Positions 42,577 through 58,654 of a stretch of DNA of 64,000 bases are shown in pieces; positions within the stretch are counted from its first letter, which is position 1, and each line of letters starts with the position of its first letter. The translations under genes and the position numbers were made by a program. The stretch comes from Gemmatimonadetes bacterium 2013_60CM_65_52 (GTDB taxonomy: Bacteria; Gemmatimonadota; Gemmatimonadetes; Gemmatimonadales; Gemmatimonadaceae), in the NCBI GenBank assembly GCA_002215645.1, contig NGFI01000005.1:114678-178677 (forward strand). The letters run 5' to 3'. The notes below the pieces were generated by a model. It was not told the origin of the DNA, did not search any database, and saw only the letters and a program-made list of their open reading frames with translations.

Positions 42577-45500
42577 ATGCCCAGGTTCGGCCCGCGGACG
42601 ATTGCTCTACTGCTCGGCGCCACCGTTGTCGTGGCGATCATCGGCTGTCGAAAGAAGGCAGTGCCGATGGAGGTCCTCTTCACCACGCGCACGCAGGCGA
42701 TGTACAGCCTTCAGCGTGGCCAGCTCGCGGAGGCGGAGACCCTCTTCAAGAAACTCGTCGACCAGGCACCCGACGACCCGCTCGGCTACGCGAACCTCGG
42801 GCTCACGTACCTTCAGCAGGGGCGCTACGCCGAGGCCGACAAACAACTGAGCCGCGCGCGAAAGCTCGATCCGGCCAACGCGGACATCGCGTTGATGCAT
42901 GCGAAGCTGTTTGCCCTGTCAGGTCGCCGCGACGACGCCCGCACACTCCTCGAGACCGTTTACAGGGGTGATCCGCACAGTCTTCACGCTCTCTACGCGC
43001 TCGCCGAGCTCGATGCGCAGGAGAAGGACGGTGCGGCGCTCGCGCGACGCGAGCAGCGACTGAAGGCGATTCTCGGGCTGGCGCCAGCGAACATTGTCGC
43101 TCGGCTGGACTTGATGGACATCGCCTCCGGGCGCGGACAGGCCGACAGTGCAGTGCGACATCTCGAGGAAGTACGACGCATACCTCCCGAGCCGCCCAAG
43201 GAGGCACTCCAGGAGATCGACCGATCCATCCAGCTCCTGCGCACCGGGAGCGTTGCCGGCGCGAAGCCATCGCTCGATCGCGTCCGACGCGCGATGGAGC
43301 TGACCAAACCATATCAGGCGTCGTTGGACGACGTGAAGTGGATCGAAGGACCGATCAGTGGCACGCCGCTCCTCACGTTCGTTCCGTCGTACTTCGTTTC
43401 GACGCACGGCAAAGGTGGAAGAGCCGTCGATTCGGTCCGCTTTCGCGACGTCACCGACGACTCGGGTTTACTCACCGCACTCGGCACTGTGGCCGGGGCC
43501 GGCACACCGACCGCTGTCGCGATCGCCACAGGCGACGTCGACGGCGACGGGCGCGACGAGCTGTTCATCTCCTACGGCGCTGCGGGACGCAGCGGCGCGG
43601 TTACACGGCTGCTTCAGATGCAGGGCGGGTTTGTTCACGATATCACGGCTCGTTCCGGTATCTCTCTGCCCACCGGGGCATCGTTCGCGACGTTTTCCGA
43701 CGTTGACAACGATGGCTGGCTCGACCTCTTCGCCATCGGCGGCGACGGACGCGGCCATCTGCTCCACAATCGGGGCAACGGAACGTTCGAGGACGTGACA
43801 GCGAAAGCAGGTGTCGGCGACGTAAAGGGCGCGACGAAGGCGCTGTTTATCGATCTGGACCACGACGGCGATCTCGATCTCGTGCTCGTCGGCAATGGGC
43901 AGCTTCTGGTGTACCGCAACAACCTCGACGGCACGTTTACGGAGGCGACGGCCGCCTTCGGCCTCGCCGACCTGGCAGGCGGTGCGCGCGACGCGGCATT
44001 CGGCGACTTCGATGGAGATGGGCGCATCGACCTGCTCGTCGCGAAGGCCGCAGGGGGGCTTGCCCTCTACCACAACGGCGGCGCACAGCGCTTCAGCGAC
44101 GTGACCGCCGCGAGCGGGCTCGCTAGCGCCGGAGTGATCGCAGGCGCCGTAGCGATCGCTGATTACGACAACGACGGCTCTCTCGACATCCTCGCCGTGA
44201 GCATGAACGGAGGAGAGCCGGCACTCTGGCACAACAAGGGGGACGGCACGTTCACGCTCGATCGTGCAGCTGGCGTGTCACTTCGGGCGCTCCGAGGCGT
44301 ATCGGCACGCGCCGCCGAGTTTGTGGACTATGACAATGATGGCCGCCTCGACGTCCTCGTGGTGGGCACGCCCGCGATCGCGACGGGGCAGGGCGTCGTC
44401 CTCATGCACAATGAGGGCAACGGCCAATTCACCGACCGGTCCGGCAGGCTTCCCGCGTCCGTCAAATCGGGAACTGCAATAGCCGCTACCGATTTCGATG
44501 GCGACGGCGACGAAGACCTCATCGTCGCGGCGACCGGTGCGGGCGTGCACTTGCTGCGAAACGACGGCGGCAACACCAGCATGGCCGTGCGCGTGCAGCT
44601 CAAAGGCTTGCGAACGGGCAGTGGAAAGAACAACGATTTCGGCATCGGCGCGCGGCTGGAGCTGCGCACGGGCGACATGGTACAAACGCGTGTGGTTACC
44701 GGCCGCGTGACACACTTCGGTCTCGGTCCGCATCTCAAGGCCGACGTTCTGCGCGTGGATTGGCCCAACGGCGTGCCGCAGACCGTGTACTTCCCAGGGT
44801 CTGACCAGGATGTCGTCGAGCGCGAGATGCTCAAGGGCTCATGCGCGTTCGCATACACATGGGATGGCACCGGCTTCCGCTTCGTGACGGACGTCATGTG
44901 GCGTAGCGCCCTTGGAATGCCACTCGGCCTCATGGGTGGCACAAGCGCGTTCGCTCCCGCCGGAGCCTCGCAGGAATATCTGCGCATTCCCGGTGACGCG
45001 CTGAAGCCGAAGGACGGACGTTACGTCATTCAGTTCACGGAAGAGCTGTGGGAGACCGCATATGCCGATGAGATCAAGCTCATCGCCGTGGACCATCCCG
45101 ATTCGGTGGATGTCTTCGTGGACGAGCGTTTCGTGCCGCCAGGCCCGGTTGCGCTCAAGCTCTTTCAGGTCGGCCGTCAATATCTGCCGCGATCCGCGAC
45201 AGACGAGCGGGGCAACGACGTCCTGCCCGCACTGCGCGCGAGCGACGATGTCTTCGTCTCGAACCTCACACCGACCCGCTATCAGGGCGTCGTCGAGCCC
45301 CACGACCTCGTGCTCGACCTCGGCGACGAAGCCGGACTCCCGGGGAGCCGTCTCTTCCTTCGCGGATGGATCTACCCGACCGACGCGAGCATCAACGTGG
45401 CCCTTTCCCAACAGAAGGACGTGAAGGTGAGCGCGCCGTCGCTCGAGGTGCGCGATACCCAGGGTCGTTGGACCACCGCCTACGCCAACCTCAGCTTCCC

Positions 45501-46113
45501 CTCCGGCAAGGACAAGACGATGGTGATCGACCTCGCCGGAAAGTTTCCGACGAAGGACCATCATGTGCGTATCCGGACGAACATGCAGATCTACTGGGAT
45601 CAGGCCTTCGTGGCGGCGGACGATCCGTCGAGCCCGGTCAAGCTGACGACCCTCGCTCCGGTAAAGGCCGATCTGCATTTCCGCGGATATTCGCGCATGT
45701 ATCGCAAGGGCGGACGCTACGGGCCGTACTGGTTCGCGTACGATGACGTGAGCCGTTCCTCGCCCTGGCGGCCGATCGCGGGTTCGTTCACCAGATTCGG
45801 TGACGTGCTGCCGCTGCTCGGAAAAGCCGATGACATGTACGTCATCATGGCTCCGGGCGATGAGGCCACCGTGCAGTTCGACGCCGGCTCCGCGGCCACG
45901 CTTCCGCCGGGCTGGAAGCGCGACTTCCTCCTTTACACCGACGGGTGGATCAAGGACTCAGACCTCAACACCGCATTCGGCACGACCGTGGGCCCACTTC
46001 CATTTCACCGCATCAAGTCATACCCGAGTGCGCCCGGCGATAGGTATCCGTCGGATGCCGCGCACCAACGGTACCTGCGAGCGTACGATACGCGAATAGT
46101 CACTCGGCGCTGA
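42577..46113 (+). CDS. TPR + FG-GAP/VCBS repeat + ASPIC/UnbV lipoprotein (CRTAC1 family), 1178 aa
   Basis: Lipoprotein signal ...VVAIIGCRKK and N-terminal TPRs. FG-GAP repeats recur (GDVDGDGRDELF, SDVDNDGWLDLF, DLDHDGDLDL, GDFDGDGRIDLL, DYDNDGSLDIL, TDFDGDGDEDL). The UnbV_ASPIC segment is NNDFGIGARLELRTGD...HFGLGPHLKADVLRVDWPNG. Confidence 0.85.
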   Translation: MPRFGPRTIALLLGATVVVAIIGCRKKAVPMEVLFTTRTQAMYSLQRGQLAEAETLFKKLVDQAPDDPLGYANLGLTYLQQGRYAEADKQLSRARKLDPANADIALMHAKLFALSGRRDDARTLLETVYRGDPHSLHALYALAELDAQEKDGAALARREQRLKAILGLAPANIVARLDLMDIASGRGQADSAVRHLEEVRRIPPEPPKEALQEIDRSIQLLRTGSVAGAKPSLDRVRRAMELTKPYQASLDDVKWIEGPISGTPLLTFVPSYFVSTHGKGGRAVDSVRFRDVTDDSGLLTALGTVAGAGTPTAVAIATGDVDGDGRDELFISYGAAGRSGAVTRLLQMQGGFVHDITARSGISLPTGASFATFSDVDNDGWLDLFAIGGDGRGHLLHNRGNGTFEDVTAKAGVGDVKGATKALFIDLDHDGDLDLVLVGNGQLLVYRNNLDGTFTEATAAFGLADLAGGARDAAFGDFDGDGRIDLLVAKAAGGLALYHNGGAQRFSDVTAASGLASAGVIAGAVAIADYDNDGSLDILAVSMNGGEPALWHNKGDGTFTLDRAAGVSLRALRGVSARAAEFVDYDNDGRLDVLVVGTPAIATGQGVVLMHNEGNGQFTDRSGRLPASVKSGTAIAATDFDGDGDEDLIVAATGAGVHLLRNDGGNTSMAVRVQLKGLRTGSGKNNDFGIGARLELRTGDMVQTRVVTGRVTHFGLGPHLKADVLRVDWPNGVPQTVYFPGSDQDVVEREMLKGSCAFAYTWDGTGFRFVTDVMWRSALGMPLGLMGGTSAFAPAGASQEYLRIPGDALKPKDGRYVIQFTEELWETAYADEIKLIAVDHPDSVDVFVDERFVPPGPVALKLFQVGRQYLPRSATDERGNDVLPALRASDDVFVSNLTPTRYQGVVEPHDLVLDLGDEAGLPGSRLFLRGWIYPTDASINVALSQQKDVKVSAPSLEVRDTQGRWTTAYANLSFPSGKDKTMVIDLAGKFPTKDHHVRIRTNMQIYWDQAFVAADDPSSPVKLTTLAPVKADLHFRGYSRMYRKGGRYGPYWFAYDDVSRSSPWRPIAGSFTRFGDVLPLLGKADDMYVIMAPGDEATVQFDAGSAATLPPGWKRDFLLYTDGWIKDSDLNTAFGTTVGPLPFHRIKSYPSAPGDRYPSDAAHQRYLRAYDTRIVTRR

Positions 46114-46149: not shown

Positions 46150-47906
46150 ATGCCTCTTCGTCCCGCCGTTCGGCGTGCGATCATCGCCGTGCCGTTCTTC
46201 GCGGCCATCGGCCTCGCGGTCCATCTGGATCACCAACCGCTCGGCGCCGTCACGGATCCGGGGCACCCCGGGTTCGCGTTGCATGATGCGACCGCCGCGG
46301 CGGGACTCCACTTCGTACATCACCGTGCGAGGTTCGACGCCAGGCTCGCCAACATCGAGCCCCACGTCGCCGCCCTTGGCGCGTCGGTCTCGGTCGTGGA
46401 CTTCGATGGCGACGGGTGGCCCGATCTCTATTTCACCAACAGCCGCTTTGGTGAGCCGAACGCGCTCTATCGAAATCGTGGCGACGGTACGTTCGAGGAC
46501 GTTGCCGCCAGCGCGGGCCTGGCCGACCTCAATCGTCCCGGCGAAGGCGTCTCGATGGGCGCCGTGTGGGGCGACTTCGACAACGATGGCCACGAGGACG
46601 TGCTCGTCTATCGGTATGGCTACCTGTCCCTCTTCAGAAACGTGGATGGCCATCATTTCGAGGACGTCACCGAGAAGGCCGGGCTCAAGCGCTGGATGAA
46701 CAGCAACGGCGCGATCTGGATCGACTACGATCGCGACGGCCTGCTCGATCTCTACGTCACCGGATATTTCCGCAGTGACATCGACCTGTGGCACGTCGCG
46801 ACGACGAAGATCATGCACGACAGCTTCGAGTTTGCGACGAATGGCGGAAAGAACCTGCTCTTCCACAATCTGGGGAACGGCAGGTTCGAGGACGTCACCG
46901 ACAAGATGGGCGTCGGCAGCACGCGCTGGACGCTGGCTGCGGCATCGGCCGACTTCAACGGCGACGGCTGGCCCGACATCTACCTCGCCAACGACTACGG
47001 CCCCGAGGAGCTCTACCTCAACGATCACGGCCGACGCTTCGTCCTGAGCTCCGCCGGCCTCGAGAGCGAATCGAAGAGCGGCATGTCGGTCGCGCTCGGC
47101 GACGCGTTCAACCGCGGCACGTTGGACGCGTTCGTCACCAACATCTCGGAGCGCGGTTACATCTTTCAGAACAACAACCTGCGTCTCAACCAGATGCTCG
47201 AGACGGGGCGCTTTCGCAACGTTGCGGAGGGTGCTGTCGCCGATGCCGGTTGGGCGTGGGGCGCGCAGTTCGGTGATCTCAACAATGACGGATCGAATCA
47301 GCTGTTCGTCGCCAACGGCTTCATCTCCGCCGACCCCAACGTGAACTATTGGTACGCGATGTCGAAGATCGCGGGCGCCAATGGGCGGCTGTTCGAGGAT
47401 GCATCGAGCTGGCCCGCGTTCGGTAACGCCAGTCTCTCCGGATATGAGCACGCCCGTGTCTACATGAATCGTGGTCTCGCCGGCTGGGTGGACGTCGCGC
47501 AGAGAGTCGGTGTCACCAACTCCTACGACGGACGCGCCGTCGCGCTCGCCGACCTGTCGAACCGTGGAGCCGTGGACGTGATAGTGGCGAACCAGAATCA
47601 GCCTGCGGTGCTGTACCGCAACCATCCGGACACTGCGAATCATTGGATCGGCCTCAAGCTCGTCGGTACGCGGAGCAACCGAAGCGCCATCGGGGCCGAG
47701 GTGGTCATCGAAGCGAGCGGCATGACGCAGCGGCGGATCGTTGACGGCGGAATGGGCTTCGCGAGCCAGAACGATCGGCGGCTCCATTTCGGCGTCGGTC
47801 GGCGCGATTGGGTCGACCGCGTGGTCATCCACTGGCCGTCAGGCACGCAGCAAACGCTGCAGCATTTGGCCGTGGATCAGATTCTCACCGTCACGGAACC
47901 GGGCCG

Positions 47907-47910
<4 letters not shown>
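46150..47910 (+). CDS. CRTAC1-family protein (FG-GAP repeats + ASPIC/UnbV)
   Basis: FG-GAP repeats are VDFDGDGWPDLYF, GDFDNDGHEDVL, IDYDRDGLLDLY, ADFNGDGWPDIY and GDLNNDGSNQLF. The C-terminal segment is SNRSAIGAEVVIEASG...LHFGVGRRDWVDRVVIHWPSG. Confidence 0.88.
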
Positions 47911-48765
<855 letters not shown>

Positions 48766-48785
<20 letters not shown>

Positions 48786-49344
48786 AGAGGCGTCTGCCTG
48801 CCTTCGGGTAGTAGCTCTCGTCGGGCAGCTCCCAGCCCAGGGTGTCAGCTAATCGATCGTAGGTATTGAAGAGGAAGGCGACGTAGAACGCGTCGCGAAT
48901 CGCTTCGCGTGTCGCCCCAGCGTCGAGCACCCGCCGAACGCCGCTCGGACCGAGCTGGTCGGGCTGCAACGTGAAGATCTCGAGGAGCCCGAGCATGGCA
49001 CGCAGCTTCTCGTCGATCGGAGCCGTCCGGTAGTCGTTCAGGATCGGCGTCATGATGCCTTGGCCCAGCGCCGTCTCCGCGACCGCGGAGTGAGCACTGG
49101 TTCAGAAGACGCATTGGTTGAGGCGCGACACGAACGCGGCGAAGATCTCGCGCTCGCCCACCGTCCACGGCGACGGTCCACGCATGACCCGCTGTGTCAG
49201 ACCGCTCCACGGGTCGCCGAAGAACTTCTTGCGGTACTTGAGCGTACGGATGACGCCGGGGGCGTGGCCTGCGACCAGTCGAATGATGCGGAGCATCACC
49301 GTGTCGAGAAGTCCGTGGCCCGAGTGAACTCTGTGAAGTCTCAT
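48766..49344 (-). CDS. carboxymuconolactone decarboxylase (AhpD-like) family protein with in-frame TGA at the CxxC position; candidate selenoprotein (CxxU)
   Basis: Track ORFs 49102..49344 and 48766..49053 are in the same frame and separated only by the TGA at 49102-49104 and 16 sense codons. Read-through gives ...SRLNQCVF-U-TSAHSAVAETALGQGIMTPILNDY.... A SECIS-like hairpin follows the TGA. Confidence 0.7.
49065..49100 (-). promoter_or_regulatory. SECIS-like RNA stem-loop immediately 3' of the in-frame UGA
   Basis: On the mRNA strand: UGA-A-[CCAGUGCU]-CA-[CUCCGC]-GGUC-[GCGGAG]-AC-[GGCGCUGG]. This is an 8-bp lower helix with two G-U pairs, a 2x2 internal loop, a 6-bp upper helix and a GGUC apical loop. 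Confidence 0.6.
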
Positions 49345-49640
49345 GCCTGACCGAGGGCGGCGAGCCCGGCGAGGAGTCGCTTTCTCGAGGCTCCAAGCGC
49401 GGCGCTGACGATGATCTCGAACATCCGGTCGTCGCCATACGTCGCCTGGAGAACGGCGATGTCCTCGTCGGTGACCTTGTAGGCGTGGCGATGAATCTTG
49501 TCGATGAGGGATTCGAGGTCGCTGGGCGCGCCTGTTCCCTCGGCGGCGGCGTTCCGTACGGCGGGATCGCTCTCACCTGGGCCGTCGAAGACAGTCCGGA
49601 AAACTGCGTCGCGGTCCTCTGCATAGGGGTCGCTCGTCAT
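49341..49640 (-). CDS. small AhpD/CMD-fold-like protein without CxxC
   Basis: The stop overlaps the downstream start (ATGA at 49341-49344). ...DLESLIDKIHRHAYKVTDEDIAVLQATYGDDRMFEIIVSAALGAS... resembles the helical CMD-family C-terminal region. I chose the ATG at 49640; the alternative is a TTG at 49676. Confidence 0.5.
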   Translation of the reverse strand: MTSDPYAEDRDAVFRTVFDGPGESDPAVRNAAAEGTGAPSDLESLIDKIHRHAYKVTDEDIAVLQATYGDDRMFEIIVSAALGASRKRLLAGLAALGQA

Positions 49641-49691
49641 GCGCGGAATGTGAGGCCGCGGAGAGTCGTCGTGCAAGGCAGTTGGTTCGTG

Positions 49692-51245
49692 CTATCTGTG
49701 GCGGCGCGCGCGGCCCGAGGGTTGGTAGAGATCCTCGAGATTCAGGAGAAATGCGTGCCGCCTCGCGGCTCGGACGGTCTTCTCGAACTCCGGGGTGAAT
49801 CCGCTCGCCGCGACCCACAGGAGTGGAGAATCTGGTTTGGAGGCTTTATGTGCCCAGGCGACGCCTGATGTCGCGAGGCGTTCGATCATCTGCATGTGGT
49901 GATGGTGCCACGCTACGCCGAGCGGCTTCTTGTTCCACTTCACGCCGCCCGTCATGACGCCGCCGTCGCTCAGGACGCATGCGATGTCCATCTCGAGCGA
50001 GGCGCCGTCACGGTCGCGGCCCTCCCATCTCCCCCACTCTCGTACCATGGGAAGCTTCAGTCTAGTCCGGAGACGTGTGTAGGCCTGCTCCGCGATCTGC
50101 TCAAACACCGGCCCCATGTACGTGTCGAGCACGGGCGCGATGTGGGCGTTCCACACGTCCTTTGGGCTGTTGCGCTCGAGCACCGTTTCGAACTTGGACA
50201 CGTACTCGTGGTGGAACATGAAGGCGGGGTCAGCCAGGCGGTATCGGAACGGAACGGTTCCTTTTGCTCCGAGATTGCGCTCTGTCCTCACATAGCCCAT
50301 GGCGATGAGACGTTCGAGCTTCGAGCGCAGTGGTGTGTCCACGCCCAGTCCTGCGCGCTGTGCGATCTCATTGAGGTCCGTGCGGCCAGAGCCAATGGCA
50401 CGCATGATCGCCGTGTATTGCGTGGTCTCCCGAAGACTCTGCTCTTGCAGGAGCGCGGTGCGGACGAGCTCGCGCACTTCGCCGCTCGGCGCCAGCAGGA
50501 GTCGCGTTGCGTTGCCGGCAAGCGTCTCCCGCGGCTTGATGGTCGCGAGATAGCGTGGCGTACCTCCGAAGAGCCCGTACGTGTAGCAGCGGTCGCGCAG
50601 TCGGCGGAAGGGGACCATCTCCGCAGTGGTCCAGTAGTCGAACGGCTGGATCTGTCGCTTCCAGGCAAATCGCCCGTGGAGGGGCGCTCCTCCGGCATCG
50701 AGTGCCTCGAGCGTTCTGGTTGCGGAGCCCGACAGGACACACACCAATGGGCGCGCGGGCCTGCGGCGCTCCCACGCTGCATTGAGCTCGGATGCGACAC
50801 CGGACAATGCTGTCTCGGTCTCGCCGAGATATTGAAACTCGTCGAGCACCACGACGATGGGGGCGGGGCTTCTGAAATCGAAGAGCAGACGAAAGACGGT
50901 CCGCCACGTTGGGTAGTCCTCGTGTCGCAACGGCTCCCCCGACCACTGGGCCAGATCGGCAATGAGCTGTTGACGATTTTGCTCGGGCGTCGTTGCCGAG
51001 GCGGTGAAGTAGAACGCCCGATCCGTTGGCCAGAGATGCGTGAGCAGGTGCGTCTTGCCCACTCGCCGGCGGCCATAGATGAGGACGAGCTGCGGCGTTC
51101 CCTCGGCCAGAAGCGACGACAGGTGGTCCTGCTCTTCCGCACGGTCGATGATCGCGCTGGACAATGGCGCCGATGTTATGGGGGGGGTCTCTACTACTAT
51201 ACAAGTATACTTGTACAGTAGCATAGTTGTCTGCCGGGGGGGCAC
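49692..51245 (-). CDS. ATP-binding protein, archaeal-type ATPase (PF01637-like) with DUF234 C-terminal domain
   Basis: The GTG at 51245 lies 6 nt after GGGAG. ...IDRAEEQDHLSSLLAEGTPQLVLIYGRRRVGKTHLL is the Walker A region. VVVLDEFQYL is Walker B. A winged-helix-like middle region follows. The C-terminal LEMDIACVLSDGGVMTGGVKWNKKP looks like a PD-(D/E)xK motif. Confidence 0.85.
   Translation of the reverse strand: MPPRQTTMLLYKYTCIVVETPPITSAPLSSAIIDRAEEQDHLSSLLAEGTPQLVLIYGRRRVGKTHLLTHLWPTDRAFYFTASATTPEQNRQQLIADLAQWSGEPLRHEDYPTWRTVFRLLFDFRSPAPIVVVLDEFQYLGETETALSGVASELNAAWERRRPARPLVCVLSGSATRTLEALDAGGAPLHGRFAWKRQIQPFDYWTTAEMVPFRRLRDRCYTYGLFGGTPRYLATIKPRETLAGNATRLLLAPSGEVRELVRTALLQEQSLRETTQYTAIMRAIGSGRTDLNEIAQRAGLGVDTPLRSKLERLIAMGYVRTERNLGAKGTVPFRYRLADPAFMFHHEYVSKFETVLERNSPKDVWNAHIAPVLDTYMGPVFEQIAEQAYTRLRTRLKLPMVREWGRWEGRDRDGASLEMDIACVLSDGGVMTGGVKWNKKPLGVAWHHHHMQMIERLATSGVAWAHKASKPDSPLLWVAASGFTPEFEKTVRAARRHAFLLNLEDLYQPSGRARRHR
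51194..51221. repeat. 28-bp near-perfect palindrome (core TACAAGTATACTTGTA) inside the first codons of the ATPase gene
   Basis: CTACTATACAAGTATACTTGTACAGTAG has a perfect 16-bp core at 51200-51215 and one mismatched pair in the flanks. It is flanked by G8 (51180-51187) and G7 (51235-51241) runs. Confidence 0.6.
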
Positions 51246-51355: not shown

Positions 51356-52948
51356 TCACGCCCCCACTCCTCGCAGGCGCGGCAATGCCTCGATGACAGC
51401 ATCGCGGCCAAGCCCCAGGAGCTCGTGCCGCGCGATCAGCGTGTCGAGGTCCACGGCATAGAGGTTCCTGCGCTGTGGATCTGCCAGCCCGGCCACGTTC
51501 CGCGGCGCAATCGCGTCCGCCATCCACGCCACGAAAGCCTGACGGTCCTCCGGGCTGCCCCGGTCCCCTCGACGACGCGTGATATGCCGCAGACGCCCGA
51601 GACTCTCCCGCGGGAGGGCATCCAACACAGGGTCTTCCACGCCGAGGAAGCCATGCCATGGCGCGGACTCATCCGGGACGAGTCGCTGCCGCGCCTCCGC
51701 AAACGAGACCGCGCTGAAATAGAGCATCGCCTGCGCGGCGAAGAGATCGAAGTGCGACATCGCCTCGTACGCCCCGGCGACGACGAGATCGACCTGATCC
51801 GCCTCCGCGCCCAGCGCCGCATTGTAGCGCTCAAGCATCTCCGCGCTCGGCACCCGGTGGCCGCCAACGGCAGACTCGAACGCGAGCGCGAGCCGCTCCA
51901 CCGCGCGAAGTCCCCACGCGATGCCTGTCGAGAAGAGTGGATCCACGAACGCGAATGCATGAGGCATCAGCACCCAGCGCTCGCCCGCCGCGCGCGCGAG
52001 CCGATGCTGAATGGCTGGCTGATGCTTGATGGGCATCAACGGCCTGGCGTCGGCGAAGACACGTTCGAGTGTGGGATACCGGCGGAGCAGGGTGCGCCAG
52101 AGCGACGCCGCATCTGCGTCGCCCGCGTGCAGGGTCGCCATGCCGCGCGGAGTGAGCAGAAATCCGGCGCTGGTGACCCCGTGGTCGAAGCGAAGCGAAT
52201 ACATCCAGCCTTCGTCGATCACATGGTGCACGGCAGCCCAATCGTCGGGATACGGCCCGTCCGGCAGGCCGGGCTCGACGTCACGCATCAACTGCACTCC
52301 GTCGAAGTGGCTCCAGACGAGCGCCGATCGTGTCTCGGTGCGTTCGAGCCCGGATGGAATGGAAAGCTGCCGTGCGAGAAAGCCGCCCGGACCGGACGCA
52401 TCGATGAGAAAGGTCGCGCTCAGCGTGAACGCGATACCCTCGCGGTTTGCGCACAACAGTACACCATCCGAATCGATCTCCGCGCTCGTCACCTCGACGC
52501 GATCCCGATAATCCACGCCCGCCGCGACGGCCTGACGGACGAAGTGATGATCGACGTCGGCGCGCACCCAATGGGTGTCGCCAAGCGCGTCAATCGGACT
52601 TGCGGCGACCAGCAGCCGCTCCGAGTCCAGCCCGCGATTCGCGAAGGATTCTCCCGGATGATGACGGTAGAACGTGAAGCCTCGCTTCAGCCCGCGACGG
52701 AGCTCCGGAAAATGATCGAGCCATCGTCCGTGCGTCGCCAATTGATAACAGTCGTCCAGCCCGTAACGGACACCGAGCCGCTCCAGTGACAGATTGGCGA
52801 GCGGGGTGGAGGACTCGCCGATGGCGAAGCGTGGATGCGTACTGCGCTCGAGCAACACGACGTCGTAGCCGAGCACCGCGAGGCAGCGCGCCATGAGCGA
52901 TCCGGCGAATCCACTTCCGACGATCGCGACCTCGCAACGCTCCGTCAC
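51356..52948 (-). CDS. FAD-dependent oxidoreductase, flavin-dependent halogenase/monooxygenase-like
   Basis: The GTG at 52948 overlaps the upstream stop (GTGA). Motifs are VAIVGSGFAGS (GxGxxG), PRFAIGESS and FVDPLFSTGI (the FxxPxxSxG motif of halogenase-like flavoproteins). The WxWxIP position is degenerate (GWMYSLRF). Confidence 0.8.
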   Translation of the reverse strand: MTERCEVAIVGSGFAGSLMARCLAVLGYDVVLLERSTHPRFAIGESSTPLANLSLERLGVRYGLDDCYQLATHGRWLDHFPELRRGLKRGFTFYRHHPGESFANRGLDSERLLVAASPIDALGDTHWVRADVDHHFVRQAVAAGVDYRDRVEVTSAEIDSDGVLLCANREGIAFTLSATFLIDASGPGGFLARQLSIPSGLERTETRSALVWSHFDGVQLMRDVEPGLPDGPYPDDWAAVHHVIDEGWMYSLRFDHGVTSAGFLLTPRGMATLHAGDADAASLWRTLLRRYPTLERVFADARPLMPIKHQPAIQHRLARAAGERWVLMPHAFAFVDPLFSTGIAWGLRAVERLALAFESAVGGHRVPSAEMLERYNAALGAEADQVDLVVAGAYEAMSHFDLFAAQAMLYFSAVSFAEARQRLVPDESAPWHGFLGVEDPVLDALPRESLGRLRHITRRRGDRGSPEDRQAFVAWMADAIAPRNVAGLADPQRRNLYAVDLDTLIARHELLGLGRDAVIEALPRLRGVGA

Positions 52949-53889
52949 GACGCGCACTCCGCGCACGCGACCCGCGGCTCTGATCGCCCCGACACGTTGA
53001 GCCGACGAAGTCGCTGAAGCCGAGCCGGCCGACATGTGTCACACGCCGCAAGGCGCTCCGCGTCCCAGCAATCGGCCGTCACGACACCCGGGCCGAGAAA
53101 CAGGCACTGGTCGAGGGCCGATTCGAGCTCCGTCAACGTCGGCGACGTGAAGTGGCCGAGCGACGCAAGACGCTCCAGCTCCCCATTGCCTCCTCGCACG
53201 GGGATGATCGACACGACGGCCGCCCCTCGTGCGAGAGCATACTCGACGCTCCGCATGGTCCACTCCACGCTCTCCTCCGCGCGAACGTACGGCGTTCCGA
53301 GCAGCACGAAGACGCGAAGGTCGATGTCGTGGGCGGCCAGATCGTCCGCCGCGCGATCAAACCGATCGAAGTCGAGTCGCTTGTTCAGGTGCGCCATTGC
53401 GTCAGCATGGACGGTCTCCAGTCCGATGGCCACCTCGAGCCGGCCGTTCAAGCGGCGCGCGAAGTCAACCACATCCGGTCCGATGCCCCTCGCGTGCGAC
53501 TCTACAGTGATGCCCGTGAACGGTGCCGCGAGCGCGGCGATGGCGGCATGATCCGCGATCGGCACGGCTCTTCGGTCGAAGAAGTTGCTCGCATTGTACA
53601 GTTTGAGTCGGTCGGGAGACGGTTCGCCGAGCGTGCCAAGAACATCCTCGAGCTGACGAACCAGCGCGCCGTTCGGCGTTGCGCCGTCAATCGTCCACTG
53701 CCAGAGGTCGCAGAACGAGCAGGTGAACGGACATTCCGCGCCGGCGAGAAAGACGGTGAGTGCGCGCTCGATCGTAGCGCCGGGGCGCCGCTCCTCGTCG
53801 ATCACCGACCCGTGCGCCTTGTACGGATCGACCTTCGGCTTCGGCGGACGCAAGCTCCGGATCCGCCGGTCGGCGGCAGATCCGCTCAC
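52945..53889 (-). CDS. radical SAM enzyme (small, about 314 aa)
   Basis: The GTG at 53889 overlaps the upstream stop (GTGA). The CX3CX2C motif is AECPFTCSFCDLW, followed by LKLYNASNFFD and IGLETVHADAMAHLNKRLDFDRF. There is an extra C-terminal CxxC...CxxC (ACDTC...ACAEC). Confidence 0.85.
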   Translation of the reverse strand: MSGSAADRRIRSLRPPKPKVDPYKAHGSVIDEERRPGATIERALTVFLAGAECPFTCSFCDLWQWTIDGATPNGALVRQLEDVLGTLGEPSPDRLKLYNASNFFDRRAVPIADHAAIAALAAPFTGITVESHARGIGPDVVDFARRLNGRLEVAIGLETVHADAMAHLNKRLDFDRFDRAADDLAAHDIDLRVFVLLGTPYVRAEESVEWTMRSVEYALARGAAVVSIIPVRGGNGELERLASLGHFTSPTLTELESALDQCLFLGPGVVTADCWDAERLAACDTCRPARLQRLRRLNVSGRSEPRVACAECAS

Positions 53890-55217
53890 ACCATGGCCGC
53901 GTGCAGCGCCTCGAAATGCTTGCGGTAGCGGACTTCGTTCTGCGGGAACAGGCGGCTGACGTGCGCCGCCGCCACGGATCCATGCTGGAATCGACGCTTC
54001 GTGAACACCGGCATCTCGATGCCGAGCACGGAGCGGATCCCGCGTGAGACGATTTCACCCTTCAACGCATAGAGCCGCTCGTGCGAGCCGTGCGTCAGCT
54101 CGGCAAACGGAATCGCTTCCGCCACGGCGATGACCGCTGGACGCGTGTACGGACTGAACCCTTCGAACCCGTACTCGCGCGCGCATGCGTAGCTCCGCAC
54201 GCACGCGCGGCTGTACCCACCCGAGTACGTGAGCGAGTGCTTGATCGACTCGACGCCCCATCCCTCCTGATACAGCATGCGATTGTTGACGACGCTGCGG
54301 ATCGTCAGCTCGCTATTCTCCTCGATGGGATAGTCCTTGAGGTTCTCGTCGCCGCCGTCGCCGTCCACCAGGAGGCGCCACTGGGGGTAGCGGCCGCGGA
54401 TGGCAGCCAGCAGGCCGAGGTTCACGGCGGCACACTCGACGTCGAGCGGTTTGTAGTCTTCTATGACCGCCACGGCACGCAAGGGATCCAGTGCGCTCGA
54501 AGGGACGCCGATAGTCTCGCCGAGCATCTCGAGATTTGTACGCCGCAGGAATTCGCGCGCCTGTTGCGCGTCGTCGCCCCCACCGTCGATGGACAGCGTA
54601 AAGGCCTTGAGTCGCGCCGCCGATTGTCCCTCGTTCAACAGCAGGGCAGACAGGCAGAGCAGAACGGCGCCACTGTCGATTCCTCCCGAGAACGGAACGC
54701 CGATCGGCGTCGAGGCGTCATGTGCTGCGAGCCACCGGCGCAGTTCCTCGTACAGCGCCTCGATGTAGCGTCGCCCGATCACGTCGAGATCCGCGGGAAG
54801 TGTTCCACGCGCCGGGTCGAAGAAACGCTGATGGATCGGGTTCGGATCGGGGCAGCCGACCAGGCGCAGCGTCGTGGTGTGGTGGGCGGGCACCATGCGC
54901 GTGTAGCTCGGATGGAACTGGTCGGCCCAGCCATGTCGCGATAGCTCCGACGCGATCTCGTCGATTCGCTCGGCGACGATCAGCACGGGTCCGTCCGCGG
55001 CCTTGGCCAGGAAGTAGCGGAGCGGGCGGTCGAGACTCCGCGCGAGTATCACGCGCTCGTCCTGCTGTGCGACAAGTGCGAAGGAGCCCTGGATGCCGAG
55101 GAGTCCGTTCGCATCGGCCGCGAGCAACTGCCGCGTCGCCTCCGCGTGTGTCGCATTCCAGAGGCGTTGTGACTCGGGACCAATGAGATTGATGACGCGG
55201 GCGACGGGATAAAGCAT
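53886..55217 (-). CDS. asparagine-synthetase-like PP-loop adenylating enzyme lacking a functional glutaminase domain
   Basis: PFSGGIDSGAVLLCL is the SGGxDS PP-loop and LVDGDGGDENLKDY is the AsnB-type motif. Only a remnant of the N-terminal Ntn domain is present (GSFALVAQQDERVILARSLDRPLRYFL), and there is no Cys2. The ATG at 55217 is chosen; the frame stays open up to a GTG at 55397. Confidence 0.8.
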   Translation of the reverse strand: MLYPVARVINLIGPESQRLWNATHAEATRQLLAADANGLLGIQGSFALVAQQDERVILARSLDRPLRYFLAKAADGPVLIVAERIDEIASELSRHGWADQFHPSYTRMVPAHHTTTLRLVGCPDPNPIHQRFFDPARGTLPADLDVIGRRYIEALYEELRRWLAAHDASTPIGVPFSGGIDSGAVLLCLSALLLNEGQSAARLKAFTLSIDGGGDDAQQAREFLRRTNLEMLGETIGVPSSALDPLRAVAVIEDYKPLDVECAAVNLGLLAAIRGRYPQWRLLVDGDGGDENLKDYPIEENSELTIRSVVNNRMLYQEGWGVESIKHSLTYSGGYSRACVRSYACAREYGFEGFSPYTRPAVIAVAEAIPFAELTHGSHERLYALKGEIVSRGIRSVLGIEMPVFTKRRFQHGSVAAAHVSRLFPQNEVRYRKHFEALHAAMV

Positions 55218-55671
55218 ATGAGGACGGCGACCAGCGCCGAACAGAGTTGAACACGCGTCGCGCGCAGCGACGCTGCTGGTCGAATCTACCCGGGCGCTCC
55301 GTCGCGCTGCCACTGTGGCGGCGCCGACCGCCCGGACACCGGCGTCGCTGACGCCTGGAACCCTCAGTGTCGTGGCGTCCGCGCAACAACTCGACACGTG
55401 GGGCGCCAGACAGTCGAAGATTCAAGAAACCAAACGCGTTGTCGTCGTTGCCGTTACTCATGCGGACCACGTTTCGTCCATTGGTCACGCGGCTTGCATC
55501 AGTGGCGCGCGGGTCGGAGCGGAGCACGGAAGGGCTTCGTGACCGGCATCACACATCACGCAAGCACGTCGCATGACACGGTTCATGTGATGGTGTCGCG
55601 AGAGGGCGCCCGGTCGCAGGACCGTGGCGCTCTCGTCCATTTCGGGACCTGCTTTCGGGGCCCGCGCCCGA

Positions 55672-56226
55672 TCAGCCCGGCCGCTGCCGCGCACTGACCT
55701 CGGCCAGCCACTCACGTTCCGTCTCCATCAGGCGCAAACCGAGCCGCACCACCATCGCGGCGTCCGAGCTCGCCGACGTCTCGGCGATGACCGCCGCAAG
55801 CGCCGCGCGATCTTCCTCGATCTGCTCACTCAGGAACCGATGACGGCGACGCACCTGTTCCACGAAGTCCTTCGAGGTGGCCTGCCACGCCAACACCATC
55901 CACGTGACGAACGGCGGCGGAGGACGCTGAGTGGACCAGTCCGCACGCCCCAGCGAACGGGTGAGGGCACGATGTCCCGACGCAGATGGCCGCAGCACTC
56001 GCCGCTCGGGACCGAGCGCGACGTCGTGATCTCCAGCGGCCACGAGGTAGCCGGCGCGGGACATCTTGTTGAGCGAGTAGTACACCTGCGGGCGCGACAG
56101 GGCGGCCCATTTCCAGACGTGCCGCCGCATCAGCTCCGCCCACAGTTCGTACCCGTGCATGGGACGCTCGGCGAGCATGCTCAGGACGACGAGATCGGCG
56201 ACCGACAACTCGGTGCCTCGGGCCAT
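55672..56226 (-). CDS. PadR-family transcriptional regulator
   Basis: LVVLSMLAERPMHGYELWAELMRRHVWKWAALSRPQVYYSLNKMSRAGYL is the PadR winged-helix signature. A C-terminal helical dimerisation region follows. Confidence 0.88.
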   Translation of the reverse strand: MARGTELSVADLVVLSMLAERPMHGYELWAELMRRHVWKWAALSRPQVYYSLNKMSRAGYLVAAGDHDVALGPERRVLRPSASGHRALTRSLGRADWSTQRPPPPFVTWMVLAWQATSKDFVEQVRRRHRFLSEQIEEDRAALAAVIAETSASSDAAMVVRLGLRLMETEREWLAEVSARQRPG

Positions 56227-57001: not shown

Positions 57002-57850
57002 ATGCAGGCACCCCATGCGGATGCAGACACCAGCGTCAAGGCCTCGACTCGGCTCGAGGAATGGCTGCGGGCACGCGGCCGTGTCGCCATCGGATTCAGT
57101 GGCGGCGTGGACTCCGCGTATCTGGCCGTGGAGGCTGTGCGCACGCTCGGTCCGATCAATGTCCTCGCGATCATCGGACGGAGCGCGTCGTATCCCGCGG
57201 ACCAATGGGCCGCGGCGCGCAGTGTCGCGGAGGCGTTCGGCGTGCCGGTGCTCGAGCTGGATACGCAGGAGTTGGACGACCCACGCTACGCGGCGAACCC
57301 ATCCAATCGCTGTTACTTCTGCAAGGCGGAGCTCTGGTCGAAGCTGGTGCCGGAAGCACACGGACGCGGGTTTCACACCGTGATCGACGGGACGAATGCT
57401 GACGACCTGATCGACTATCGGCCCGGCGCGCAGGCTGCGAGAGAGCAATCCATCGAGAGTCCTCTCGCGCTTCTCGGCTTTTCGAAGGCGGAGATTCGTG
57501 AACGGTCACGGGCGCTCGGCATTCCGACGTGGGCACAGCCGTCATCACCATGCCTTTCGTCGCGCCTGCCGTATGGAATCGCCGTCACTCCCGAGCGGCT
57601 CGGCATGGTGGAGCGCGCCGAGCGGGCGCTGCGGGAGCTGGGAATCGGTGGCGACCTGCGGGTCCGGCATCATGCGGATCTCGCACGCGTCGAACTGGCG
57701 CCCGGTCTGTTGGCGGAATGGCTCACCGCTGACGGAATGCGATCGATCGCCCGTGCCGTGCGCGGCGCGGGGTTCGCGCGGGTGACGCTCGATCTCCGTG
57801 GGTTCCGTTCGGGGTCTCTCAACGTCTTGCACGGCGTGAGCGCGGCGTGA
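57002..57850 (+). CDS. larE: ATP-dependent sacrificial sulfur transferase LarE family (PP-loop, TIGR00268-like)
   Basis: VAIGFSGGVDSAYLA is the PP-loop, followed by NRCYFCKAELW and QPSSPCLSSRLPYG (the LarE Cys-containing motif) and a C-terminal RVRHHADLARVEL. Confidence 0.82.
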   Translation: MQAPHADADTSVKASTRLEEWLRARGRVAIGFSGGVDSAYLAVEAVRTLGPINVLAIIGRSASYPADQWAAARSVAEAFGVPVLELDTQELDDPRYAANPSNRCYFCKAELWSKLVPEAHGRGFHTVIDGTNADDLIDYRPGAQAAREQSIESPLALLGFSKAEIRERSRALGIPTWAQPSSPCLSSRLPYGIAVTPERLGMVERAERALRELGIGGDLRVRHHADLARVELAPGLLAEWLTADGMRSIARAVRGAGFARVTLDLRGFRSGSLNVLHGVSAA

Positions 57851-58113
57851 GCATTCGCCGCGAGATGCCTGGCGGTCCGTCCGCGCTGGAGCGCGGGCTG
57901 ACGGAGCTGGGTGTTCCGTGCCGAGTCGAATCGAGAGCGGGGCTCGCTGTGCTCATCACGACGCCAGACGTGGCCGCGCGCCTCGGCGAGGCCGAGCTCC
58001 GCCGGCAGGCGCTCGCACTCGCGCGCGAGCACGGCTTCACGCACGTCGCCATCGAGCTGCGAAGTGACGCCGATGCCAAACACACTCCCGATGCGTCTCT
58101 TCCTGGCGCTTGA
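57847..58113 (+). CDS. hypothetical small protein
   Basis: The GTG start overlaps the larE stop (GTGA). The 88-aa product has plausible composition but no recognised domain. Its 3' end overlaps the thpR start by 23-41 nt. Confidence 0.35.
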   Translation: MSIRREMPGGPSALERGLTELGVPCRVESRAGLAVLITTPDVAARLGEAELRRQALALAREHGFTHVAIELRSDADAKHTPDASLPGA

Positions 58114-58654
58114 GCTGGGCGACGCGATTCTCGGGGAGTTGGCAGCGGCCATCGCGCCTTTGCGCGAAGCCGCGCCGGAGCTGGCGTGGACGCGCGACGA
58201 GCAGCGTCACCTGACCCTGAAGTTCTTCGGGTCCGTCGAGCCGGAGCGACTCGACGGGATCGTGCAAATGACCGAGACCATCGCGCGGACCCATCGCCCA
58301 TTCGCCATGGAAATCGGCGGCGTGGGCGCCTTTCCGAACTTTCGGCGGGCACGCGTCGTATGGGTCGGGGTAGAGCATGAGGCACGGCTGGAGCTGCTGC
58401 ATCACGACGTCGAGGTTGCCGCGGCCGAACTCGGATTCGAGATCGAGGGGCGTCCATTCCGGCCGCACGTTACGCTTGCGCGGACACGCACGCCCGAACC
58501 GGAAGATCGGGTCCGGCGTCTCGCGCGGGCGGCGAAGGCGGTAGACTTCGGCGCGAGCGTGACCGTCGCGGAGATGGTGCTGTTCGAGAGCGTGGTCGCG
58601 CCAGGTGGCGCGCAGTATCGGCAGGTGCACGTGGCGAACCTGGGAGGACGCTGA
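58073..58654 (+). CDS. thpR: RNA 2',3'-cyclic phosphodiesterase (2H family, ThpR/LigT)
   Basis: The two HxT/Sx motifs are HLTLKF and HVTLAR. MRLFLALELGD is the typical N-terminus. The ATG at 58073 (alternative 58091) lies inside ORF 57911..58654. Confidence 0.85.
   Translation: MPNTLPMRLFLALELGDAILGELAAAIAPLREAAPELAWTRDEQRHLTLKFFGSVEPERLDGIVQMTETIARTHRPFAMEIGGVGAFPNFRRARVVWVGVEHEARLELLHHDVEVAAAELGFEIEGRPFRPHVTLARTRTPEPEDRVRRLARAAKAVDFGASVTVAEMVLFESVVAPGGAQYRQVHVANLGGR

Follow-up and report, generated by a model that had tools for sequence, protein, structure and literature searches.

In beta-lactam synthetase (BLS), catalysis depends on a Tyr-Glu dyad and a lysine (Y348, E382, and K443), and the halogenases PltM and CtcP act on free phenolic small molecules. 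In the ArcS-RaSEA system, lysine is added first and RaSEA turns the adduct into an amidine; RaSEA is active only in an obligate complex with the lysine-adding enzyme (PMC11298593). Here we analyze three adjacent genes in a 64,000-nucleotide (nt) stretch of DNA, hereafter the window, from Gemmatimonadetes bacterium 2013_60CM_65_52 (contig NGFI01000005.1, positions 114,678 to 178,677). They encode an AsnB-like adenylating enzyme, a radical S-adenosylmethionine (SAM) enzyme, and a halogenase-like flavoprotein. Each protein belongs to a known superfamily yet falls outside every characterized family considered, and their combination is undescribed. The conserved core of this cassette is the pair formed by the AsnB-like and radical SAM genes.

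Organization and distribution of the cassette

The three genes are encoded in the window as follows:

Positions 53889-55217, minus strand: AsnB-like gene, 443 amino acids (aa) from the ATG at 55217; maximal open reading frame (ORF) 53886-55397.
Positions 52948-53889, minus strand: radical SAM gene, 314 aa; maximal ORF 52945-53889.
Positions 51359-52948, minus strand: flavoprotein gene, 530 aa from the GTG at 52948; maximal ORF 51356-53035.

Consecutive genes share a GTGA start/stop overlap. The junction at 53886-53889 reads ...ATG GTG TGA for the end of the AsnB-like gene and GTG AGC GGA for the start of the radical SAM gene, and the junction at 52945-52948 reads ...GCG TCG TGA and GTG ACG GAG for the radical SAM and flavoprotein genes, respectively. 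Independent gene calls on a contig from JGI give products of 443, 314, and 526 aa with a 4-nt overlap at both junctions; the radical SAM and AsnB-like products are 100% identical to those of the window, and the flavoprotein is 99% identical. The AsnB-like start at 55217 is backed by aligned orthologues, including those from other phyla, which begin at the same position. Extension of this gene upstream to the GTG at 55397 is permitted by the ORF but finds no support in the orthologues or the gene calls. The G+C content of the window is about 65% throughout.

To describe the distribution of the cassette, a profile built from diverse relatives of the radical SAM enzyme was used to scan one genome per GTDB species, and a relative was found to be encoded in at least 588 species genomes. 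Synteny was then assessed in the best 80 of these at least 588 loci, with the three window proteins as tblastn queries. The order AsnB-like, radical SAM, flavoprotein was observed in 70 of the 80; seven of the remaining ten loci were too short to judge, and three lacked one gene despite sufficient room. The projected gaps at the two junctions have medians of -4 and -1 nt, and therefore overlapping junctions are the rule rather than a quirk of this genome. Thus, the operon with overlapping genes, which an earlier note had read from the sequence of the window alone, agrees with the ORFs, the junction sequences, and the JGI gene calls, and its translational coupling is borne out by the same order and usual overlap in several phyla. 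It is probable that the AsnB-like and radical SAM proteins are produced jointly, and they may act as a complex.

According to the record titles, the loci belong to Gemmatimonadota, Acidobacteriota, Planctomycetota, one "Deltaproteobacteria" metagenome-assembled genome (MAG), and one Bacteroidales MAG. The 70 loci with all three genes in order represent the first four of these groups. The Acidobacteriota loci come from Thermoanaerobaculia (including Candidatus Multivorans) and Vicinamibacterales, and cluster look-ups add Rubinisphaera and a Verrucomicrobiota MAG. When the ORFs of 46 loci were clustered all-against-all, only the three cassette genes were universal. The other clusters were confined to single lineages, such as tmk, holB, and trmB (named from reading their translations) beside the cassette in Candidatus Multivorans and its Thermoanaerobaculia relatives, or genes for ASPIC proteins in Gemmatimonadota. 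The immediate neighbors in ten diverse loci are unrelated to one another.

The third gene has a narrower distribution. The flavoprotein gene is present in Gemmatimonadota, Acidobacteriota, and most Planctomycetota loci. A search with a Bacteroidales AsnB-like protein led to six Bacteroidota/Chlorobi-type contigs that were inspected, in which the AsnB-like and radical SAM genes overlap by 8 nt and no flavoprotein gene was found within 8 kb of the pair. Because the pair occurs there without it, the flavoprotein is an accessory third component. The proposal of the earlier note that the three genes form a unit is thus upheld by their synteny across phyla, but has to be relaxed with respect to the flavoprotein. 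A further tie between two of the genes is provided by the 450-aa metagenomic protein P0264, which contains the C-terminal two-thirds of the radical SAM protein and a flavoprotein-type N-terminal Rossmann part; it may represent a genuine fusion or else a gene call that ran on past a missed stop, and in either case ties both genes together. Apart from P0264, longer relatives of the radical SAM enzyme carry no informative extra domain, and fusions were set aside as a clue to function.

A number of other elements were sought around the cassette. The earlier note had raised the question of whether a short ORF always precedes the three genes. When the ORFs of 18-90 aa lying up to 1.5 kb from the cassette were all clustered across the retrieved loci, none proved conserved: each cluster is restricted to a lineage and resembles the shadow of a neighboring large gene, and on these grounds an adjacent precursor of a ribosomally made, post-translationally modified peptide (RiPP) was rejected. 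A conserved leader or riboswitch was rejected likewise, since Rfam at E<=1 gave nothing relevant at the cassette and an alignment of 19 upstream regions contained no conserved block. No plasmid match was found for the cassette. PADLOC returned no match for the AsnB-like protein or the flavoprotein and a single marginal one for the radical SAM protein (PDC-M51A, E 7e-4), so that a mobile element or defense island was also dismissed. We regard the three genes as a self-contained, chromosomally inherited enzyme cassette.

Membership in a known pathway or family was considered and rejected as well, since Pfam, NCBIfam, and PADLOC gave only remote superfamily matches for the three proteins and their neighbors, and full-text literature searches produced no description of the module. 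In the same three proteins and their immediate neighbors, Pfam and NCBIfam detected no RRE/PqqD, SPASM, YcaO, or lasso-B domains. These results agree with the earlier note, which had matched the genes to no characterized pathway, had found no lasso B-protein, YcaO, or SPASM arrangement, and had suggested the family searches.

Comparison of the three enzymes with characterized families

The AsnB-like protein has the PP-loop FSGGIDSG and the motif DGDGGDE. Its N-terminus is MLYPVARV, without the catalytic Cys2 of glutaminase domains, and no N-terminal cysteine is conserved in the corresponding alignment column of 26 orthologues. It matches PF00733 (Asn_synthase) with 39 bits against a cut-off of 21 and TIGR01536 (glutamine-hydrolyzing AsnB) with 26.5 bits against a cut-off of 267, in both cases in the PP-loop region only; the latter score places it outside the glutamine-hydrolyzing family. 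As a single sequence it retrieved nothing from the PDB by phmmer. A profile of the family aligned with human ASNS (E 3e-4), including part of the glutaminase domain, and marginally with TsnB9 (E 0.74).

The AlphaFold2 model (mean predicted local distance difference test score, pLDDT, 78.6; predicted template-modeling score, pTM, 0.83) was compared with the PDB by Foldseek, and BLS gave the best matches (1mb9 and 1jgt, E about 2e-12, about 440 aligned columns), followed by ASNS, carbapenam synthetase CarA (9e-11), E. coli AsnB, and TsnB9. With its SGGxDS PP-loop, the protein is a member of the AsnB-fold superfamily, and according to the model it has the two-domain fold with a shortened, nucleophile-less N-terminal domain, a remnant of the N-terminal nucleophile (Ntn) domain. 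Thus, the motifs and the missing Cys2 listed in the earlier note are present in the translation, and its view of a glutaminase-less AsnB fold distinct from true asparagine synthetase is consistent with both the fold matches and the TIGR01536 score.

The beta-lactam and carbapenam synthetases share with the AsnB-like protein the two-domain fold, the inactive N-terminal domain lacking Cys2, and the retained PP-loop. In contrast, no similarity to them was detected at the level of sequence in the phmmer search; the AsnB-like protein is shorter (443 aa), has a hyper-conserved segment of its own (residues 292-335), and has a radical SAM partner, and genes for clavam/clavulanate or carbapenem were found in none of the loci. 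The lasso-peptide cyclases of the McjC/LasC type are likewise AsnB-like adenylating enzymes without the glutaminase nucleophile, but the B protease, the RiPP recognition element (RRE), and the precursor peptide that belong to the lasso systems are absent from the neighborhood in the window and are not conserved in the 80 loci.

Conservation of the AsnB-like protein is very high. The mean column identity across phyla is 70%; relative to the window protein, orthologues have a median identity of 79% within Gemmatimonadota, falling to 65% for Acidobacteriota/Planctomycetota and 52% for Bacteroidota. The most conserved stretch comprises residues ~292-335 (window positions ~54213-54344, minus strand), with the consensus NLKDYPIEEN.ELTIRSVVNN.MLYQEGWGV..IKHS.TYSGG, and is nearly invariant from Gemmatimonadota to Bacteroidota. 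It is also the sole region of the AlphaFold2 model with pLDDT <50, and is probably a family-specific loop that becomes ordered when substrate or partner binds. Another invariant segment, QFHPSYTRM.PAH...GCPDP, lies between the two domains.

The radical SAM enzyme has the motif CPFTCSFC and a C-terminal CDTC...CAEC. Residues C53, C57, and C60 are invariant in the family alignment; C283, C286, and C312 occur in 90% or more of the diverse members, and among close relatives C309 is likewise invariant. The family includes 288 representatives of 50%-identity clusters at E<1e-30. Membership in the radical SAM superfamily follows from the CX3CX2C motif and the partial TIM barrel, and the model (pLDDT 92.4) has fold matches of probability 1.0 to PFL-AE, NifB, LipA, and Elp3, whereas the Pfam radical SAM score of 21.7 is under the gathering score of 29.5. 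The fold matches are generic, with template-modeling (TM) scores of about 0.5, and comprise NifB, PFL-AE, MgmA, Elp3, LipA, and MiaB. The single sequence found nothing in the PDB, and the profile gave chance-level matches only. Neither Pfam nor NCBIfam detects a SPASM domain; there are only the four C-terminal cysteines arranged as CxxC...CxxC, in contrast to the canonical pattern of seven in SPASM (or three in twitch) domains. The compact enzyme with an additional cysteine pair described in the earlier note is thereby upheld.

The best NCBIfam match for each of the 40 diverse members examined is TIGR01210 (RaSEA), with a best E of 1.6e-32 that still represents a partial alignment, followed by MnmL/YtqA. 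For the window protein, the TIGR01210 score is 60.9 bits against a cut-off of 212, below the level of family membership, and the alignment covers the radical SAM core only (model positions 4-212 of 313). Judged from these comparisons, the enzyme represents a sister family of archaeal RaSEA, with a kinship that is remote but consistent. Some sources label its members "archaeosine synthase beta-subunit"; because they fall outside the RaSEA family, this label is unsupported.

By analogy, ArcS-RaSEA would be the closest characterized precedent for the AsnB-like/radical SAM pair. Both systems combine, here through translational coupling, an enzyme that forms C-N bonds with a radical SAM enzyme of the TIGR01210 lineage. 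The differences are substantial: the partner in the cassette is an ATP-dependent AsnB fold rather than a TGT/PUA-type ArcS; the cassette is bacterial, while ArcS-RaSEA is from Euryarchaeota; no TGT, PUA, or Que/7-deazaguanine genes were seen among the cassette neighbors; and the C-terminal CxxC...CxxC region of the cassette enzyme lies outside the part aligned to TIGR01210.

The flavoprotein contains GSGFAG, FVDPLFSTG, and EGWMYSLRF. Among PDB sequences it matches PltM (1.2e-43) and the tetracycline 7-halogenase CtcP (2.2e-38) over about 410 residues, in agreement with its earlier description as halogenase-like, and it has weak Pfam and NCBIfam matches to Trp_halogenase, CmlS, QhpG, GoxB, and LodB. 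The GxGxxG motif is present as GSGFAG, and the aligned orthologues conserve G11, G13, and G16. In the alignment to PltM, K88 (GLKRGF) falls on the lysine of GIKLGF, which we take to be PltM K87 (the counterpart of PrnA K79), and is thus the predicted catalytic lysine; at least 95% of 40 aligned family sequences carry it, as does every displayed row. The motifs HPRF.GES.TP and F.DP.FSTG recur widely as well, although some members from Acidobacteriota and Planctomycetota have substitutions in the second.

The exception is WxWxIP, which in the window protein is replaced by WMYSLR. This motif is canonical in one Planctomycetota locus (L079, GWMWVIPFD), near-canonical in another (L082, GWMWVLPFD), and near in many Acidobacteriota (GWMYVLPFD), while in Gemmatimonadota it is decayed (GWMYSLRFD). 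Thus, the degeneracy reported in the earlier note holds for the window protein, but as a trait it is limited to Gemmatimonadota. Because of this pattern across lineages, the family looks like a genuine halogenase lineage; the window protein itself may still halogenate or may only hydroxylate. It shares with PltM and CtcP the GxGxxG motif, HPRF.GE..TP, the lysine in G(L/I)K.GF, and F.DP.FS.G. It differs from them in the degenerate WxWxIP in this genome and in its context, since it is found without pyoluteorin or tetracycline genes and together with adenylating and radical SAM enzymes. Clustering of neighbors and inspection of ten diverse loci revealed no conserved flavin reductase gene near the cassette.

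Proposed function and alternative explanations

The explanation that we favor, with a probability of roughly 40%, is that the cassette tailors a small molecule or cofactor by adenylation and radical chemistry. The AsnB-like enzyme would use ATP to adenylate a carboxylate (or carbonyl) of a cytoplasmic substrate, and the activated group would then be joined to an amine that does not come from glutamine. Without a glutaminase domain no ammonia is released from glutamine, and hence the amine would be either a part of the substrate, giving a lactam as in BLS, or a free amino acid. The radical SAM enzyme would process the adduct by hydrogen-atom abstraction, and, if it resembles ArcS-RaSEA, in which an attached lysine is subsequently cleaved off with -NH2 remaining, the outcome may be an amide or amidine. 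Where the third gene is present, the PltM-type flavoprotein may halogenate or hydroxylate an electron-rich (phenol-like) part of the same molecule. Gene structure, synteny, family assignments, and the retained catalytic-type motifs are observed; the substrate, the order of these steps, complex formation, and the role of lysine as a surrogate are inferred. As a substrate, a small metabolite or cofactor precursor seems more likely than a ribosomal peptide.

Several observations fit this interpretation. The nearest predicted fold is that of BLS, an enzyme acting on a small molecule, and the closest solved relatives of the flavoprotein in sequence, PltM and CtcP, act on phenols. The failure to find a conserved short ORF, a leader or Rfam element, a plasmid match, or more than one marginal defense match is also consistent with it. 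In this respect the earlier note fared unevenly, as it had offered a small-molecule or RiPP-type tailoring module: the former is the favored explanation, whereas the latter finds no support in view of the missing short ORF and RRE/PqqD domain.

A number of points weigh against the favored explanation. None of the neighboring genes supplies an obvious precursor. The identity of AsnB-like proteins between phyla (51-68%) is above that usual in secondary metabolism, and the Thermoanaerobaculia cassette lies among housekeeping genes (tmk, holB, and trmB); given this conservation and setting, a macromolecular or central-metabolic substrate would suit equally well. The homology to RaSEA is remote (61 vs. 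212 bits) and limited to the core, and thus RaSEA chemistry may not carry over. The flavin reductase partner was not seen among the neighbors, and the decay of WxWxIP makes halogenation doubtful in this genome. Finally, the most conserved stretch of the AsnB-like protein, residues 292-335, is the one modeled with the least confidence.

Additional evidence on the possible role of the cassette is provided by genes of the FG-GAP/UnbV_ASPIC (CRTAC1) family, which in the window are encoded near the three genes together with a membrane protein:

Positions 46150-47910, plus strand: exported FG-GAP/UnbV_ASPIC (CRTAC1-family) beta-propeller, 586 aa (FG-GAP_3 9e-43, UnbV_ASPIC 2e-22).
Positions 47808-48785, plus strand: NQR2/RnfD/RnfE (RnfD/NqrB)-family membrane protein (PF03116, 29.4 bits against a cut-off of 27.7).
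Positions 42577-46113, plus strand: second ASPIC paralogue, 1178 aa, just upstream of the 586-aa ASPIC gene.

The coordinates of the RnfD-like gene are those of the maximal ORF; the true start is probably further downstream, and the gene call in Gemmatirosa gives 283 aa. ASPIC orthologues (73-80% identity) adjoin the three cassette genes in 15 Gemmatimonadota loci, and the ASPIC and RnfD-like genes are co-conserved there as a pair in two arrangements, either divergent and upstream or convergent and downstream, the latter being found in the window and Gemmatirosa. The loci with this pair include L008, L015, L017, L019, L024, L027, L031, L042, L047, and L087. FG-GAP/UnbV_ASPIC genes also lie beside the AsnB-like/radical SAM pair in all six annotated Bacteroidota/Chlorobi-type contigs, and in L072, and SusC/SusD genes lie beside it in five of the six. 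The closest relative of the 586-aa window protein in these contigs (~573 aa) directly follows the pair. In four of them the pair is directly followed by a run of same-strand genes for an ASPIC protein of ~572 aa, a hydrazine-synthase-alpha-like protein, a beta-propeller/c-type cytochrome, an unknown protein, and a Peripla_BP_6 binding protein.

These runs, located for instance at 10357-16709 in L085, 10474-16863 in L088, and 10649-17055 in L090, constitute a separate observation of hydrazine-synthase-like proteins outside anammox bacteria. Their hydrazine-synthase-alpha-like member is a beta-propeller as well, and the beta-propeller with a c-type cytochrome/CCP-MauG domain is hydrazine-synthase beta/gamma-like (NF052342 at 6e-73, far under the cut-off).

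Among about 35 Acidobacteriota and Planctomycetota loci, only one has an ASPIC gene within its flanks. Because the association extends over two phyla and persists through rearrangement, it is suggestive; at the same time, because ASPIC paralogues are very numerous in these phyla, some of the adjacency could be inherited synteny. It is possible that the ASPIC and RnfD-like proteins are functional partners of the cassette. For this ASPIC and membrane-protein pair, an analogy with the enediyne UNBV/UNBU proteins was weighed and dropped.

The conservation of the AsnB-like protein and the housekeeping neighborhoods in Thermoanaerobaculia keep models with a macromolecular target alive. One of these, which we consider unlikely, is that the pair, alone or together with the flavoprotein, introduces a modification into a nucleic acid or a translation factor, for example by installing an amide or amidine on a tRNA or rRNA nucleoside; the AsnB-like PP-loop enzyme would adenylate a base or side chain, and the RaSEA-like enzyme would complete the reaction as in archaeosine synthesis. 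The best family matches of the radical SAM enzyme are indeed to tRNA-modification enzymes (RaSEA, then MnmL/YtqA), and Elp3 and MiaB are among its fold matches, although all of these structural matches are the generic ones mentioned above. The very high cross-phylum conservation of the AsnB-like protein, the lack of conserved neighbors together with the Thermoanaerobaculia surroundings, and the failure to find the cassette on plasmids also suit such a role. In contrast, Pfam and NCBIfam detect no RNA-binding domain (PUA, THUMP, TRAM, etc.) in the three proteins, to our knowledge no flavin halogenase acts on RNA, the distribution of the cassette among bacteria is patchy, with most phyla lacking it, and a role in translation does not predict the association with exported ASPIC/UnbV and with SusC/SusD in two phyla. 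For translation factors, an analogy may be drawn with beta-lysylation of elongation factor P (EF-P) by EpmA, EpmB, and EpmC, where an ATP-dependent ligase, a radical SAM enzyme, and a hydroxylase act on one target; however, the families are unrelated (a LysRS paralogue, lysine 2,3-aminomutase, and YfcM), and linkage of the cassette to efp was not observed.

The ASPIC association, in turn, keeps alive the models in which the enzymes are maturases or make a cofactor. Anaerobic sulfatase maturases and QhpD/QhpG, which build a protein-derived cofactor, offer parallels for enzymes that would post-translationally modify a target encoded nearby or elsewhere, be it a protein or a peptide; the exported FG-GAP/UnbV_ASPIC proteins, before Sec export, would be the most plausible target. 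We regard such a function as improbable on balance, even though the adjacency in six Bacteroidota/Chlorobi-type contexts and L072 (several directly downstream on the same strand) and the orthologous ASPIC and RnfD-like genes abutting the cassette in two arrangements in 15 Gemmatimonadota loci speak for it. AsnB-like enzymes, radical SAM enzymes, and flavin halogenases or hydroxylases are all found in RiPP and protein-cofactor maturation (PMC13060819), and the flavoprotein itself has the weak matches to QhpG, GoxB, and LodB. On the other hand, its similarity to PltM and CtcP, which are small-molecule halogenases, is far greater than that to QhpG, Pfam finds no RRE/PqqD domain in the three proteins, no short ORF is conserved, and both the near absence of ASPIC genes from the Acidobacteriota and Planctomycetota flanks and the abundance of ASPIC paralogues argue against this function. 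Another explanation is that the cassette synthesizes nothing and instead serves catabolism or salvage of an imported nitrogen-containing compound taken up through a TonB-dependent SusC/SusD-type system. It is suggested by the Bacteroidota loci, where the pair has SusC/SusD genes as neighbors and, after it, genes encoding a LacI regulator, an Asp/Glu racemase, peptidase S58, URO-D, a creatininase-family amidase, and a glucosamine-6-phosphate-deaminase-like protein. However, these neighbors are not conserved beyond a few Bacteroidota contigs, the Gemmatimonadota, Acidobacteriota, and Planctomycetota contexts show no uptake genes, and ATP-consuming adenylation followed by radical SAM chemistry would be unusual for catabolism, all of which makes a catabolic function very unlikely.

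Returning to small-molecule or cofactor tailoring, a more specific version can be formulated. The pair would be a bacterial counterpart of ArcS-RaSEA, in which an amino acid is added independently of glutamine and cut off by radical chemistry, so that an amide or amidine nitrogen is installed on a carboxylate. The product would be a new metabolite or cofactor that is used by the exported CRTAC1/ASPIC-UnbV proteins and that, in carriers of the flavoprotein, would be halogenated or hydroxylated. This version is quite unlikely as stated; if true, it would give the large and enigmatic CRTAC1/ASPIC-UnbV family a biochemical context.

A cassette conserved in the same order in hundreds of species and matching no characterized pathway probably represents chemistry that nobody has studied. 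Its carriers belong to abundant soil, sediment, and marine phyla, namely Gemmatimonadota, Acidobacteriota, Planctomycetota, and Bacteroidota, with single Verrucomicrobiota relatives. In databases the proteins appear as "asparagine synthase," as "radical SAM protein," or under the misleading archaeosine synthase label. Each enzyme represents a deep uncharacterized branch of a superfamily with unusual reactions, such as beta-lactam and lasso ring closure, archaeosine formation, and phenol halogenation; a solution for one member would be likely to uncover a new reaction sequence and to put thousands of annotations right. The link to ASPIC/UnbV (CRTAC1-family) proteins is a rare lead on a protein family of unknown function that reaches to vertebrates. 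The cultured carrier Gemmatirosa kalamazoonensis KBS708, in which the cassette lies at about 4,646,014-4,650,160 of CP007128.1, makes it experimentally approachable.

Local neighbors in the window

A regulator gene is found upstream of the cassette:

Positions 55672-56226, minus strand: PadR-family regulator gene (PF03551), co-oriented with and upstream of the AsnB-like gene.

The earlier note had placed this gene ahead of the cassette, and its orientation and the 454-nt gap to the AsnB-like start stand. It is, however, a local neighbor outside the conserved module and not a part of the unit: of all the loci searched by tblastn, L001 alone has PadR, and this contig derives from the same or a near-identical organism. 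PadR has a promoter-like site upstream (56283-56255); the 454-nt spacer between PadR and the AsnB-like gene yielded none. Besides PadR, a glyoxalase-like gene and a LarE gene near the cassette are also confined to L001, and both PadR and LarE were therefore rejected as cassette partners.

The LarE-type ATP-dependent sacrificial sulfur transferase (57002-57850, plus strand; TIGR00268, 291 bits) has no LarB or LarC nearby. It is followed by an 88-aa ORF and a LigT/2'-5' RNA ligase-like gene (57911-58654, plus strand). The LarE and LigT-like genes are divergent from the PadR side of the operon and are not conserved beside the cassette elsewhere.

On the other side, a 517-aa ATPase_2/DUF234 protein (49692-51245, minus strand) is encoded between the flavoprotein gene and a 111-aa ORF, and matches the PADLOC candidate defense family PDC-S27 at 3.5e-40. 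In Gemmatirosa this position is occupied by an MFS transporter instead, so the gene seems to be a local insertion.

The 111-aa ORF (49341-49676) precedes a probable selenoprotein gene (48766-49344, minus strand), which encodes a 192-aa AhpD/CMD-like "peroxidase-related" protein with the motif C-V-F-U-T-S-A-H. Its frame consists of an 80-aa ORF that ends ...LNQCVF at an in-frame TGA (49104-49102), 16 further codons, and then a 95-aa ORF. With U replaced by C, the product matches TIGR01926 at 7.6e-17 and NF041238 (AhpD_rel_CFYUT (seleno)protein) at 2.7e-10. The UGA is covered by a strong hairpin (-31 kcal/mol, z -3.8) that lies mostly immediately 3' of the codon, as would a bacterial selenocysteine insertion sequence (SECIS). 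The same split by TGA is observed downstream of the cassette in at least nine other Gemmatimonadota loci, including that of Gemmatirosa.

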